From Escherichia phage mEp044, in the sequence record PP180004: DNA of 54,557 nucleotides; one strand, written 5' to 3'. Shown in pieces: positions 5,303 through 9,187 of this stretch. The translations under genes were made by a program, and so were the position numbers. The stretch's first letter is position 1. The number at the start of each line of letters is the position of its first letter. The notes beneath the pieces were generated by a model, which saw only the letters and a program-made list of their open reading frames with translations, searched no databases and had not been told where the DNA came from.

Positions 5303-5320
5303 TATGTCATTACCTCCTGT

Positions 5321-6463
5321 TTACAAAATGGAAAATTCAGGGTAATAAACAAAGCGCCCGATCTCCCCATGATCCGGGCTGTAAATAATCACCGCTGCCA
5401 GACGCCGCGACCTCCAACCTCCATTAGTCGAATATGCATCTTTGCCCGCTAACGTGCCGTGATACTCAACAACGCCTAACGATGATTCAATCAGCCTTTG
5501 ATGATGCCAGTGCCCGCAATGAGCGTAAACCGCAGACGACTTGCCAAAGTCTTCCCGCCAGTCAGCTACGCAAGCAGACAATAAATTTTCCGGCTTTTTG
5601 ATAGTGTGCCCGTGGTGGTAAGCAAGGAATGTTTTCCCGTACTGCGTGTGGTGGACGATAGTAGGTGACACATCAACCGTCACGCGCGGTTCATCTTCGT
5701 AAAAAGCCGCCAGCGCCGCACGTAGCCAAATCATACCAGACTGGTCATGATTCCCTGATAACACCTGGATTTCCACATCCTTATGATTTAGCAACATCTT
5801 TCCTACCGCACGCCGGACAGACCGGATCGCCACATAAACAAGTTTTGCGTAGCGCGAATCGCAATCAAGAACGTGATTACTTGATGGCGTCACTGGTAAC
5901 AATCCGTCAGTGTGAAGCAGGTCGCCACCGAGAAGCAAGACCGCTTTTTCACTCATAGGAGCAGCGCCAACAGCATAATCAAAGAAGTTATTTAGCACGC
6001 GTTCAGCGATCCCAGTGTCGTAGCTCTCGCCGCATTCAGCTTTATGAGCAAGCGCGCCGATATGCAGATCAAATACCGGATAAAGGGCAAGGCTTTTTTG
6101 AAAATCAATTTCAGGCACTGGCACGGCATCCGCGCGTGGTATTTCCTCCGTGAATGCGTCGCGGGCAGCTTCCATTAGCCTTTCCATTTCATCGCGGTCA
6201 CGGGCTGTTTTAATCCAGCGCATGACCGTATTCCCAGCCTTATCGACAAGAACAGATTCACCAGTAACGCCAAAACCCGGCGCGCGGCGCGTTGATAATA
6301 AACCGCGTTTCGCCAGCTTTGCGCCCAGGCGCTCGACGTTGCGTTTTGACATGCCAAATTTTTCGGCGATCTGTTTATACGTTAAACCGTTGTTATATTC
6401 AGCGATCAATTGCTCATCGCTGATTTTTCTTTGCGACATAATGTTAATTCCTCCAGTTAACAA
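5321..6463 (-). CDS. N-terminal HTH fused to calcineurin-like metallophosphoesterase
   Basis: 380 aa; HTH LTYKQIAEKFGMSKRNVERL; phosphoesterase motifs DLHIG, GGDLLH, GNHDQ, HHGH, GHWHH. Confidence 0.7.
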   Translation of the reverse strand: MLTGGINIMSQRKISDEQLIAEYNNGLTYKQIAEKFGMSKRNVERLGAKLAKRGLLSTRRAPGFGVTGESVLVDKAGNTVMRWIKTARDRDEMERLMEAARDAFTEEIPRADAVPVPEIDFQKSLALYPVFDLHIGALAHKAECGESYDTGIAERVLNNFFDYAVGAAPMSEKAVLLLGGDLLHTDGLLPVTPSSNHVLDCDSRYAKLVYVAIRSVRRAVGKMLLNHKDVEIQVLSGNHDQSGMIWLRAALAAFYEDEPRVTVDVSPTIVHHTQYGKTFLAYHHGHTIKKPENLLSACVADWREDFGKSSAVYAHCGHWHHQRLIESSLGVVEYHGTLAGKDAYSTNGGWRSRRLAAVIIYSPDHGEIGRFVYYPEFSIL

Positions 6464-6472
6464 AATGTATAC

Positions 6473-7183
6473 CTACTTACACGCAAAAAGTTCAGATACC
6501 CAAAGCTGACCTTTAGCAGTAAATAGTGATTGCACGTAACCTTCAGGCGAACATTTTACCACTCCATAGCCTTTGTCTACGAACCACTGTTTAAACATCC
6601 GCCCACCGCGCTTAATTCGCGTATCGTACACGTCAACCTGTTCGAGTTTTTTGTTGAGTTGCGTAGCAGTCATACCCAAAGGCTTGGCAACCTGCGTTGC
6701 GTTGCGATGCTGTTCGTTTCTTACAATCGCATCACAGACAGCCGCTTTTGGCGCTAATTCCTTGTTTTCCAGCGCCAGCCGTTCAGCTTCCTTCTGTGCT
6801 AATAGTTTTTGCTCTACCTCATCCGCCCATGCGCGAGCCGCAACAACTGGGTCAGTGAAATCCGGCAAAGCTGGTTTGCGCACCTGTTTTTCAAGCTCCT
6901 GCCAGCGGTCAACAAGTCGCGCCGTAAATTTAGGACAGTTTTGAGCAACAACGATAATGCTGTCACGCTTGCCTTGTTCGCCTTCAAAAATATAGACATT
7001 AACAAACCTGTTAGGACTAAGTGATTGTTTATTCTCAACTTTCCCCATTGGGGGTAGTTTAATTACCCCTCTCTGTGCCATTCGTTCTATAGACTGTTTT
7101 ACTTTATCGTGACGATTGCCTAGTAGTTCCGCAATTTCAAAACTATTCATCCTAACACCATCAAAAACCATTAAATCACTCAT
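6473..7183 (-). CDS. Rha-family regulator with KilA-C/Ant C-terminal domain (antirepressor-like)
   Basis: 236 aa; N-terminal Rha-like EIAELLGNRHDKV; C-terminal KilAC-like region. Confidence 0.7.
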   Translation of the reverse strand: MSDLMVFDGVRMNSFEIAELLGNRHDKVKQSIERMAQRGVIKLPPMGKVENKQSLSPNRFVNVYIFEGEQGKRDSIIVVAQNCPKFTARLVDRWQELEKQVRKPALPDFTDPVVAARAWADEVEQKLLAQKEAERLALENKELAPKAAVCDAIVRNEQHRNATQVAKPLGMTATQLNKKLEQVDVYDTRIKRGGRMFKQWFVDKGYGVVKCSPEGYVQSLFTAKGQLWVSELFACK

Positions 7184-7215
7184 TGTATATACTCCGGTTT
7201 ACGTAATGTATTTGC

Positions 7216-7827
7216 TTAAACGATAATGCGCACAAACTTACAGCCCAACACTGCGCTTATTTCTTTTTCACGAATACGATCTGCTTCCGTATGCTGCGGT
7301 GTGAAATGTTGCTCCTCATCTATTTCATAGGCGATATTGTTTACAGGATCGTAGCCATCTATTCTGTATTTTCCTAGCACTGGATACTGCCTTATTAATT
7401 TAACTCCCTGTAATTGTTCTATGGTGGTTAATGCTGTTTTCTCTCTGATTCCGTTATTTCTGATTTTTTCACTTACGACGGATAAAGATGATATTGTTTC
7501 GCATAAATCATTGTATTCACTGAATTTATTACAAACTTCTTCTTTGAACCAATGTAAAAAGCGATAGTTTTTAGATTTCAATACAATATTGCATAAGTCA
7601 CATAACAACATAAGCGTTACGCCTTGTGGCTTGGGCTTAAAACCAATATTAAGCATTTCACCGTATTTGATTTTAATCAATGACTTACAGTGTCTTTTGA
7701 TTGCGCTTTGTGGTTTTATGTATCCAAGCGCCCGCGCCACATCCATTGCAACAAAAGCAGGTTTACCATCATAAATTACAGCAGTGATTTGGTTGTTATC
7801 GAAATTAAAACTCATCAACTCAGACAT
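7216..7827 (-). CDS. Bro-N domain protein fused to a Vsr/DUF559-like PD-(D/E)xK nuclease-like domain
   Basis: ORF 7216-7887 with likely start MSELMSFNF at 7827; C-terminal YRIDGYDP..IAYEIDEEQH..D.IRE...LGCKFVRI. Confidence 0.55.
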   Translation of the reverse strand: MSELMSFNFDNNQITAVIYDGKPAFVAMDVARALGYIKPQSAIKRHCKSLIKIKYGEMLNIGFKPKPQGVTLMLLCDLCNIVLKSKNYRFLHWFKEEVCNKFSEYNDLCETISSLSVVSEKIRNNGIREKTALTTIEQLQGVKLIRQYPVLGKYRIDGYDPVNNIAYEIDEEQHFTPQHTEADRIREKEISAVLGCKFVRIIV

Positions 7828-8194
7828 TGTAATTTCTCCGTAAAACGCTCTACAACGCAAAAATCCCACCGCGTAACACGTTTGCACATGTTGCAGTGTC
7901 TTATTGCGTCATAGGAGCAATCAGGTGGCTAATTTTTGATTTACAGACTGGTAGGTATGTTATGGATTGACTAGAAGGAATAAACCGCCGAACAAGGCGA
8001 CGTTAACAGCGATTGCCGCAGAGATGGCAAAAGCTAGGGCGAAAACGTGTTTACCGTCCATTTAAAAATCCCCTCTAAAACGCTATCTAACGAGCTAATA
8101 GCAAAAAGGTATGCAAGTGTAGCACCCAATGCAATTTAGCTCGCTGGTGAGCTTGCTGGGTTGGTTATTTTTGGTTTTTGTGTATCGTGGTTGG

Positions 8195-9187
8195 TCAAAG
8201 AGCGCCAGCGCGTGTATCACGTAGCGTTTTTGGTTTAAGCAGGAAATCAAGTGTCGCAGTGAAGCCATCGCCGAAGTAAAAATCTGAAGCCTTGTTTTTG
8301 AATGCTTCGAAGTAGGCGATAAATCCGTTAATGCTTTTGTCTTTCAGGTAGTCAGTGAACGCATAGATCTTGCGTTCAAGATCCCGATCAAGTTCGGCAG
8401 GTGGCAACAGGCCATCAAACGTGATGTTAAATTCTTCCACCACGTCGGCAGCGTTTGCAGTAGCTGATAGCTTTCGCCATTGTTCAGCATCAGCCAGATA
8501 CCCATCAAACTTAGTTGCCCGGCAAATGTTAACAGGCTTAGGTGTTCCACCACGGCTACGCCATTGCGTTAAAGCCCACTCAATCACTAATGTGATCTCA
8601 TCCTCAGTATACGCTTTACGTGTTTTTGTTTCTGTCAGTAGTTCGATGAACGGTTTTGCATCACGACATTTGCATCCTGCCTTGTCGTTGTAAAAGGCCA
8701 GGCAACGCAATGCAGCCAGATTAACCTCCCGATCTTCTTCGCTGATAGACTCGTCTTTTTCCAATACACGAAGTGTATTGTTTTTAATGTTCTCTTTACT
8801 GGTTATATATGACTGGTTAGGGTGACTCTGTGTCACTACCCCCGGTGACTCTGTGTCACTACCCTGGTGACTCTGTGTCACTACCCCCGGTGTCACAGTG
8901 ACACTACCATGTAATGACGGGAGGACTATTACATAGAAATTACTAGTTTGCTCTTTTCCTCCGATTAAGTATCTTGGTTGTTTAATCAACAACCCTTTTT
9001 CACAAAGTGAGTCTACAGCCCTCATAGCTGTTCTTTTACTGATCTCACACTCCTTTGCTATGTGATGGTAAGAAGGGTAACACTCGCCGTTATCATTAGC
9101 GTTGTCAGCTAACTTTAACAGCACAAGTTTGTGCATTGGGTCGCCGACCTCAGTATGGAAGACCTCTACCATTAGCCGCATACTCAT
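8195..9187 (-). CDS. replication initiator with N-terminal HTH domain (lambda O-like role); contains the ori iterons
   Basis: 330 aa; N-terminal HTH; internal iteron array as in lambda O. Confidence 0.7.
   Translation of the reverse strand: MSMRLMVEVFHTEVGDPMHKLVLLKLADNANDNGECYPSYHHIAKECEISKRTAMRAVDSLCEKGLLIKQPRYLIGGKEQTSNFYVIVLPSLHGSVTVTPGVVTQSHQGSDTESPGVVTQSHPNQSYITSKENIKNNTLRVLEKDESISEEDREVNLAALRCLAFYNDKAGCKCRDAKPFIELLTETKTRKAYTEDEITLVIEWALTQWRSRGGTPKPVNICRATKFDGYLADAEQWRKLSATANAADVVEEFNITFDGLLPPAELDRDLERKIYAFTDYLKDKSINGFIAYFEAFKNKASDFYFGDGFTATLDFLLKPKTLRDTRAGAL
8821..8908. repeat. origin iterons: three direct copies of about 20 bp (ggtgactctgtgtcactacc) followed by an inverted variant, then an AT-rich stretch (8909-8950)
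   Basis: read directly; lies inside the initiator gene (encodes the VTQSH peptide repeats). Confidence 0.7.

Follow-up and report, generated by a model that had tools for sequence, protein, structure and literature searches.

A Bro-N protein with a Vsr/DUF559-like nuclease domain in Escherichia phage mEp044: a candidate free-standing, homing-type endonuclease

We report that gp12 of Escherichia phage mEp044 joins an N-terminal Bro-N DNA-binding domain to a C-terminal Vsr/DUF559-like nuclease domain of the PD-(D/E)xK type, and our analysis leans towards gp12 being a free-standing, site-specific modular DNA endonuclease that resembles homing endonucleases. The gene lies in the 54,557-nucleotide stretch of sequence record PP180004 (referred to as the window). 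The evidence comprises the identities of the two domains, an active site that is conserved, a nuclease domain under purifying selection, presence and absence of the gene among related phages with exact junctions, and the occupation of the same genomic slot by other nucleases in these relatives. The phage is a member of the mEpimmI group of Nus-dependent temperate coliphages, and the paper describing this group is silent on gp12 (PMC11893012).

The initial annotation, made from the sequence alone, had assigned the C-terminal part of gp12 to the Vsr/DUF559-type nucleases. Although the DUF559 score of gp12 itself is below the Pfam cut-off, this assignment is confirmed by DUF559 matches among relatives, by the match of a family profile to a DUF559 protein of solved structure, and by the fold predicted for the domain. 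Specifically, a search of 5.8 billion proteins yielded 76 relatives of the nuclease domain, of which 53 match DUF559 (best 4.6e-26), 40 match MTES_1575 and 16 match PvuRts1I-like_N; gp12 itself has an additional weak MTES_1575 match. DUF559 was also detected in 64 of 120 cluster representatives of the nuclease domain from an exhaustive search. Against the PDB, the broader family profile (A5) matched 3HRL (the DUF559 protein NGO0050) at 2.3e-5 with the entire domain aligned, and the catalytic domains of PvuRts1I/AbaSI at about 5e-3; the narrow domain profile (A2) gave weak matches only (E 0.3-0.7), and a phmmer search with the whole of gp12 found nothing in the PDB. The PADLOC model mREase_II, which represents a methyl-directed restriction enzyme, matched residues 155-202 of gp12 at 2e-7 (profile positions 54-101 of 294). 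A domain-only AlphaFold model of the nuclease part (predicted local distance difference test, pLDDT, 85.6) has the order alpha-beta-beta-beta-alpha-beta, and its restriction-endonuclease-like core superimposes on Vsr, 3HRL and 3R3P. By homology and predicted fold, the C-terminal part of gp12 is a member of the DUF559 clade. The structural neighbours of the model in BFVD include several proteins named homing endonuclease as well as giant-virus Bro-N proteins. Among the BFVD entries, the Bro-N proteins of Borely moumouvirus and Terrestrivirus and entomopoxvirus "ALI motif" proteins share the fold at 22-29% identity; judged from the models, the combination of Bro-N with a Vsr-like domain may extend to viruses of eukaryotes.

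The motifs on which the assignment had been based are all present, i.e. YRIDGYDP at residues 154-161, IAYEIDEEQH at 165-174, D.IRE at 183-187 and LGCKFVRI at 194-201. Conserved acidic and lysine residues had been expected on alignment. The acidic residues, together with a histidine, are in place (E129, D157, E168, D170, E171, H174 and D183; see Table 1 for their positions and counterparts), whereas the canonical Lys is not used in this branch: the Vsr, DUF559 and PvuRts1I proteins rely on acidic residues and His instead (PMC3239194, PMC4081097). The active site of Vsr consists of E25, D51, the T63 backbone, H64, H69 and D97 (PMC3239194), and that of AbaSI of E26, D61, E72, the V73 backbone, D74, E75 and H78, where the mutants D61A, E75A and H78A abolished activity (PMC4081097); the gp12 counterparts of these mutated residues are D157, E171 and H174. 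E137 was considered as the catalytic Glu of helix 1 and rejected, as both the spacing and the alignment to 3HRL favour E129.

When 238 relatives carrying the domain were parsed with the motifs as anchors, D157 was conserved in 89%, E168 in 91%, D170 in 94%, E171 in 86% (a further 7% have Gly, like classical DUF559 proteins), H174 in 89% and D183 in 87%, with an acidic residue no more than four positions from the latter in 98%. For E129 the conservation reaches at least 90% in every alignment of the domain, and within the close gp12 family the catalytic residues are invariant or almost so. At the sequence level, the full predicted catalytic constellation is intact and conserved in gp12. Moreover, comparison of mEp044 with three relatives gave ratios of nonsynonymous to synonymous substitutions (dN/dS) of 0.07-0.14 for the nuclease domain at a synonymous divergence (dS) of 0.44-0.77, which shows that purifying selection on the domain is strong and that it is no remnant in decay.

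By sequence, the closest experimentally characterised catalytic domain is that of the 5-hydroxymethylcytosine-dependent enzymes PvuRts1I/AbaSI, and in the alignments the stretch EIDEEQH of gp12 is nearly the same as EIDEAHH of PvuRts1I. Unlike gp12, these enzymes have the nuclease at the N-terminus and an SRA-like reader of modified bases at the C-terminus; the order in gp12 is the opposite, with Bro-N as the partner. Only the nuclease part of gp12 matches, the protein stops at residue 203, and gp12 thus falls outside the PvuRts1I/AbaSI family; the essential Lys23 of AbaSI is without a clear counterpart. Classical DUF559 proteins (NGO0050, 3HRL) are stand-alone and bacterial, whereas the gp12 clade consists of viral proteins in which shuffled DNA-binding modules are joined to the domain. 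With respect to architecture, gp12 resembles I-Bth0305I and the EDxHD nucleases, including Hef of T-even phages, in being phage-borne with an N-terminal DNA-binding region and a C-terminal Vsr-like catalytic domain. The active site residues of I-Bth0305I, E170, D196, N208, H213 and D222 (PMC3239194), correspond to E129, D157, D170, H174 and D183, respectively, so that all five catalytic positions are filled in gp12. The EDxHD nucleases differ in that their binding region is of the NUMOD/helix-turn-helix (HTH) type instead of Bro-N and in that they are intron- or intein-encoded, while the gp12 gene is free-standing, intergenic and precisely absent from mEp010 and MagusPhagus; a free-standing insertion that is polymorphic in this way is nevertheless also in keeping with the EDxHD type. 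The gp12 catalytic strand (E-x-D-E...H) follows DUF559/PvuRts1I, unlike that of I-Bth0305I, and profile searches detected no similarity between gp12 and I-Bth0305I (3R3P).

Since some sources label relatives "very-short-patch-repair endonuclease", and a DNA cytosine methyltransferase is among the non-core genes of the mEpimmI group (PMC11893012), we considered whether gp12 could be a true Vsr repair enzyme that nicks T:G mismatches arising from deamination of 5-methylcytosine. We regard this as extremely improbable and rejected it. E. coli Vsr (1CW0) has a zinc site and mismatch-intercalating residues, but the gp12 domain lacks the zinc-binding Cys/His cluster and the intercalating residues equivalent to Phe67, Trp68 and Trp86 (for these Vsr features see PMC3239194, PMC4081097); it has one Cys (C196) and no Trp, and the loop after strand 3 reads EEQHFTPQH. 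Its nearest sequence relatives are DUF559 and PvuRts1I-type proteins and not PF03852, the sole methyltransferase among the mEp044 ORFs (open reading frames) tested is a Dam-type N6-adenine enzyme, and fusion to shuffled DNA-binding modules is ill-suited to a mismatch sensor.

The N-terminal half of gp12 had been described as Bro-N, and a Pfam search bears this out: PF02498 matches well above chance (34.2 bits, cut-off 25.6, E 4.1e-8, profile positions 2-94 of 96), and PHROG anti-repressor families match residues 1-98 or 1-119 with E-values down to 3.9e-18. By analogy with what is described for Bro-N domains (PMC8096241), this part of gp12 would bind DNA. Residues 1-72 are approximately 85% identical at the protein level and 89% at the nucleotide level to the Bro-N of the Bro-N-KilAC protein that mEp554 carries at the same locus, while residues 73-104 diverge from it.

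The presence of such a domain raises the alternative that gp12 is a regulatory, antirepressor-like protein in which the Vsr-like part serves dimerisation or the binding of DNA or RNA, or a replication-related nickase. Bro-N, Rha, AntA and KilA-N usually precede KilAC in antirepressor-type proteins, and the gp12 gene lies between a replication initiator and a helicase. However, Bro-N-KilAC and Rha-KilAC antirepressors, which share their N-terminal modules with gp12, have KilAC where gp12 has the nuclease domain; a Pfam search for KilAC (ANT, PF03374) gave no match within gp12. An inert scaffold would need neither the whole catalytic constellation nor the strong selection that acts on it, and the gp12 gene is dispensable because it is absent from mEp010, mEp013, mEp021, mEp554 and mEp515. 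We therefore consider this alternative decidedly unlikely.

The nuclease domain behaves as a module of its own. Searched alone, it is found in 1,058 clusters (50% identity) at E<=1e-10 and in 4,520 at E<=0.001, nearly always at the C-terminus of proteins of 140-200 amino acids (aa), and stand-alone versions of 68-100 aa exist. Among the 120 cluster representatives the N-terminal partner is Rha in 34, Bro-N in 11, AntA in 6, KilA-N in 5, NUMOD3 in 3 and ORF6N in 2, and there is one case each of HNH_repeat, a homing-endonuclease-associated repeat, and of an I-HmuI NUMOD-like module; a few domain relatives (NUMOD3 in 3/120) thus share NUMOD3 or I-HmuI-NUMOD-like modules with the EDxHD nucleases. 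At the DNA level, a unit that runs from the nuclease-domain coding sequence through the stop codon and a 32-nt spacer to the ATG of the following gene (7181-7444) is 86% identical to the equivalent part of a Rha-fused gene of a metagenomic relative; identity is 83% to five E. coli genomes, within their lambdoid prophages, and 76% in further contexts, with the 5' junction exactly at the start of the nuclease domain. Relative to mEp554, mEp044 has 732 nt (6878-7609) in place of 121 nt in the middle of Bro-N-KilAC, and these 732 nt encode the last part of Bro-N, the linker and the nuclease domain, followed by a stop codon, a ribosome-binding site and a Rha domain, so that one gene in mEp554 becomes two in mEp044. 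The cassette of the metagenomic relative L016 is isogenic with that of mEp044 save that Rha instead of Bro-N and linker precedes the same nuclease domain. Likewise, the dS between gp12 and its L005 homologue is 0.13 for Bro-N and 0.44 for the nuclease domain, indicating exchange at the domain level. Comparison across the phages hence reveals a DNA-binding module that is exchanged ahead of a constant nuclease domain.

Related genes were noted in two other settings. In the nin region of a prophage of E. coli IR53017 (L012 4029-4496) there is an intact 155-aa Rha-Vsr ORF, which RefSeq gives as a 96-nt "incomplete" Rha pseudogene; it is directly upstream of a Rha-KilAC gene, and the two Rha domains are 41% identical (4e-10). 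The T4-like Krischvirus vB_ESM-pEJ01 (L002 2411-2848) encodes a 145-aa Rha + DUF559 protein (DUF559 23.5, cut-off 20.6) beside an HNH gene and just upstream of frd/td, and its cluster is present on 48 contigs. The frd/td area is a classic neighbourhood for free-standing homing endonucleases.

In mEp044 the minus-strand order is an HTH protein, an O-like initiator, approximately 370 nt with tiny ORFs, slot 1 with the gp12 gene, a 372-aa gene, slot 2 and DnaB, with cI divergent. Placement of gp12 in an early operon, as had been proposed, is reasonable since gp12 and the downstream Rha-KilAC gene lie between the O-like initiator and DnaB, are co-oriented with them and divergent from cI. The neighbour had been named correctly as a Rha/KilAC antirepressor (Table 1), and its KilAC half is 94% identical to mEp554_12. 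The edges of slot 1 are fixed (6471/6472 and 7833/7834), and from its contents in the different phages (Table 1) it follows that three unrelated nuclease superfamilies alternate at this position. In all three the DNA-binding module is N-terminal and the nuclease C-terminal. The free-standing homing endonuclease genes of T4 and ICP1 have been described as following this pattern (PMC2988022, PMC10448857). The slot-1 proteins mEp013_12 and mEp021_12 are annotated as hypothetical or zinc-ribbon proteins and have the architecture of an ICP1-type homing endonuclease.

Combinations of Bro-N or KilA-N with a T5orf172/GIY-YIG nuclease are already known (PMC8096241). The nucleases that join Bro-N, KilA-N or CapR to T5orf172 (ICP1 and others) are, like gp12, free-standing products of domain shuffling with a viral binding module and a nuclease (PMC8096241, PMC10448857), and genes of this kind fill slot 1 in mEp013 and mEp021; T5orf172, however, is of the GIY-YIG type, a nuclease superfamily unrelated to the Vsr-like PD-(D/E)xK domains. 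A Vsr-type domain joined to Bro-N, Rha, AntA or KilA-N was not described in any paper that our literature search found.

Table 1. Features of the gp12 locus in the window, and contents of the two nuclease slots in mEp044 and its relatives (positions with an L handle refer to the contig named)
Feature	Position	Strand	Remarks
gp12, Bro-N-Vsr-like fusion	7216..7827	(-)	complete ORF, 203 aa + stop codon 7216-7218
Shine-Dalgarno GGAG	7836..7839	(-)	8 nt 5' of the gp12 ATG, inside the conserved left flank of slot 1
Bro-N DNA-binding domain (aa 14-98)	7534..7788	(-)	Pfam PF02498
Helical linker (aa 99-127)	7447..7533	(-)	AlphaFold 2 helix 108-125, low confidence
Vsr/DUF559-like PD-(D/E)xK nuclease domain (aa 128-203)	7219..7446	(-)	76 residues, alpha-beta-beta-beta-alpha-beta
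E129, predicted helix-1 Glu	7441..7443	(-)	= Vsr E25, I-Bth0305I E170, AbaSI E26; from spacing and hidden Markov model alignment to 3HRL
D157, predicted metal-binding Asp	7357..7359	(-)	= Vsr D51, I-Bth0305I D196, AbaSI D61
E168-I-D170-E171-E-Q-H174, predicted catalytic strand and loop	7306..7326	(-)	cf. AbaSI E72-V-D74-E75-G-H-H78, PvuRts1I EIDEAHH
D183-R-I-R186, predicted helix-2 Asp and conserved Arg	7270..7281	(-)	D183 = Vsr D97, I-Bth0305I D222
Shuffled DNA unit (nuclease-domain coding sequence, stop, 32-nt spacer, next gene's ATG)	7181..7444	(-)	76-86% identity to Rha-fused genes elsewhere
Slot-1 cassette, two genes (Bro-N-Vsr + Rha-KilAC)	6472..7833	(-)	absent from mEp010, 4 nt there
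Downstream partner, Rha-KilAC antirepressor-type gene, 236 aa	6473..7183	(-)	ANT 7.5e-11, Phage_pRha 6.1e-7
19-nt linker with ribosome-binding site, TACATTACGTAAACCGGAG	7192..7210, 6451-6469, 5314-5332	(-)	precedes Rha-KilAC, 372-aa gene, dnaB
Slot 2, between 372-aa gene and dnaB	5303-5320		empty in mEp044 (18 nt); HNH_3-AP2 genes elsewhere are homing-endonuclease-like
Slot 1, mEp044 and L005			Bro-N-Vsr, Rha-KilAC
Slot 1, mEp010 and MagusPhagus			empty
Slot 1, mEp013	L019 3074-3610 (mEp013_12)		178-aa CapR-zinc-finger + T5orf172 nuclease
Slot 1, mEp021	L011 2487-3974 (mEp021_12)		495 aa, five CapR-type fingers + T5orf172
Slot 1, mEp554 and mEp515			Bro-N-KilAC
Slot 1, L006 (metagenomic relative)			605-aa HNH_3 protein, Rha-Vsr, 63-aa ORF
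Slot 1, L015 and L017			Rha-Vsr, 63-aa ORF
Slot 1, L016 (metagenomic relative)			Rha-Vsr, Rha-KilAC
Slot 2, HNH_3-AP2 gene, mEp010	L010 881-1471
Slot 2, HNH_3-AP2 gene, mEp021	L011 830-1333
Slot 2, HNH_3-AP2 gene, mEp515	L018 1417-1971
Slot 2, HNH_3-AP2 gene, L016	L016 6329-6823

The gp12 ORF occupies exactly the coordinates first given for it, on the minus strand and with the stop codon included. It starts with ATG at 7825-7827, and the protein is 100% identical to the annotated "hypothetical protein mEp044_12 [Escherichia phage mEp044]". A longer version starting with GTG at 7887 was rejected as unlikely because the stretch upstream of 7834 is intergenic and conserved among relatives that lack the gene and because near-full-length homologues are 202-204 aa (14/14). 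The GC content is 35.9% for the gene and 33.9% for its Bro-N part, compared to 46% for the genome and 45-50% for the flanking replication genes, and the gene is compositionally foreign. A simple promoter/terminator scan found no convincing promoter of its own, and Rfam and tRNA scans gave no intron or other RNA family at gp12, for which reason we consider the gene to be free-standing and not intron-borne. A repeat search of 6300-8300 gave short two-copy families only, and an NCBIfam scan of gp12 gave no match. Full-length Bro-N-Vsr proteins form a small group (61-92% identity), and with megablast the full-length gene was absent from 5,426 complete E. coli genomes, in which five prophages have the nuclease-domain DNA only. 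Some close homologues, P0016-P0018 (141-154 aa), start within Bro-N and lack its first half, with the nuclease domain intact; these may be truncated or decaying copies, or have mis-called starts.

For the initial annotation two functions had been conceivable, a homing-type nuclease or a role in inter-phage conflict. The former is favoured by the slot context, i.e. a presence/absence slot that is filled by T5orf172 or HNH genes in relatives, as would be expected of a homing or otherwise selfish nuclease, and by the NUMOD3 and homing-associated relatives of the domain; inter-phage conflict is favoured less. As to how a homing-type gp12 would act, its catalysis, sequence specificity, target and mobility are inferred. 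Bro-N would provide DNA binding, and the 76-residue core would provide Mg2+-dependent phosphodiester cleavage via D157, E171, H174 and the backbone of I169, with E129, E168, D170 and D183 in assisting roles. The protein would probably be dimeric, as I-Bth0305I and AbaSI, and make a double-strand break, or alternatively be a nickase, as Vsr. Its gene behaves as a cassette that has no promoter and lies between genes of the replication operon, and upon co-infection gp12 would be likely to cut related phage genomes that lack the cassette, with repair copying the cassette or the rival's markers being excluded.

Several observations weigh against this. Neither gp12 nor any close relative has a known nuclease activity, target site or homing event, the DUF559 score of gp12 itself is sub-threshold (16.6 bits with the full-length protein and 18.4 with the domain alone, cut-off 20.6), and the AlphaFold 2 model of the Bro-N half is weak (pLDDT <50 at residues 49-58 and 65-93), for which reason the Bro-N call rests on sequence evidence. 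Within 883 nt upstream and 1,136 nt downstream no alignment column fully separates six carrier from six non-carrier genomes (a small sample), so that substitutions conferring immunity at a target site are not apparent in the adjoining DNA. The cassettes of mEp044 and L005 are about as diverged as their flanks (85.5% identity), and recent spread of the cassette is thus not evident. Furthermore, the cassette includes an antirepressor-type gene, and ordinary mosaic "moron" exchange at repeated linkers could explain the patchiness. Finally, double-strand DNA cleavage by gp12 is not guaranteed, since Vsr is a nickase and RAP-domain relatives bind RNA.

Inter-phage conflict would take the form of a domesticated weapon, in which gp12 uses a borrowed antirepressor DNA-binding domain to cut competitors, satellites or the host chromosome at the sites of the regulator, like Odn of ICP1. 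Nucleases that borrow the DNA-binding domain of their target have precedents (PMC8263062, PMC10448857), gp12 is predicted to be expressed from the early operon, and both the similarity of residues 1-72 to the Bro-N-KilAC of the mEp554/mEp515 slot and that between the adjacent Rha domains in the IR53017 prophage fit such borrowing. On the other hand, the binding sites of none of these Bro-N or Rha domains are known, the two cassette genes of mEp044 have unrelated N-termini, and the other occupants of slot 1 resemble ordinary homing endonuclease genes; we regard this explanation as unlikely.

Related to it is the suggestion, unlikely in our view, that the unit at 7181-7444 is mobile and captures the DNA-binding domain of an adjacent antirepressor-type gene, whereby the nuclease would be aimed at the sites of the rival allele and cassettes would stack at a 19-nt linker. 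Bro-N would then have come from a Bro-N-KilAC gene of the mEp554 type and, in the lambdoid prophage, Rha from the adjacent Rha-KilAC gene. The 19-nt linker, TACATTNNGTAAACCGGAG, has three matches (0.10 expected), each just upstream of one of the consecutive genes Rha-KilAC, 372-aa and dnaB, and in relatives (L001, L005-L010, L015-L017, L020) it is found at the right-hand edge of both nuclease slots. It may provide homology for cassette exchange or simply be a shared translation-initiation region.

Other features of the region were noted. In L006 (5901-8351) DnaB is 816 aa compared to 471, DnaB_C is split, and the insert has a weak LAGLIDADG_3 match, which suggests, on sequence grounds, that the insert is an intein. 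The ORF at 5321-6463 (minus strand), mechanically 380 aa with a TTG start, most likely starts at ATG 6437-6439 (MSQRK...) to give 372 aa as in relatives; in Pfam the protein has only weak N-terminal HTH matches, metallophosphoesterase-like His/Asp motifs are visible by eye, and one phage record labels a homologue DNA repair exonuclease. The conserved region of approximately 370 nt from the O-like gene to slot 1, which in relatives is annotated only with ORFs of 33-41 aa, has a terminator-like hairpin (7984-8001, minus strand) and a 17-nt direct repeat (7841-7857 and 8076-8092, copies 82% identical) and could be regulatory or origin-related.

Conceptually, gp12 falls within the established picture of modular phage homing endonucleases. 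It brings into view a large clade of small viral nucleases (>1,000 clusters at 50% identity) that has hardly been studied, that couples a Vsr-type core of approximately 76 residues to "antirepressor" DNA-binding modules, and whose genes are labelled by annotation pipelines as hypothetical, as Rha regulators and even as pseudogenes. The mEpimmI phages, which have E. coli K-12 hosts, provide a natural allelic series at slot 1 (empty, Bro-N-Vsr, Rha-Vsr, T5orf172 and Bro-N-KilAC), and because these phages grow on K-12, direct tests are within reach for homing, for marker exclusion and for the DNA specificity of the Bro-N and Rha domains. The very small size of the nuclease and the natural exchangeability of its targeting domain also give it some interest for engineering, and if the capture of adjacent DNA-binding domains were true, these slots would represent a system in nature in which one constant nuclease is re-targeted through exchange of its DNA-binding domain.

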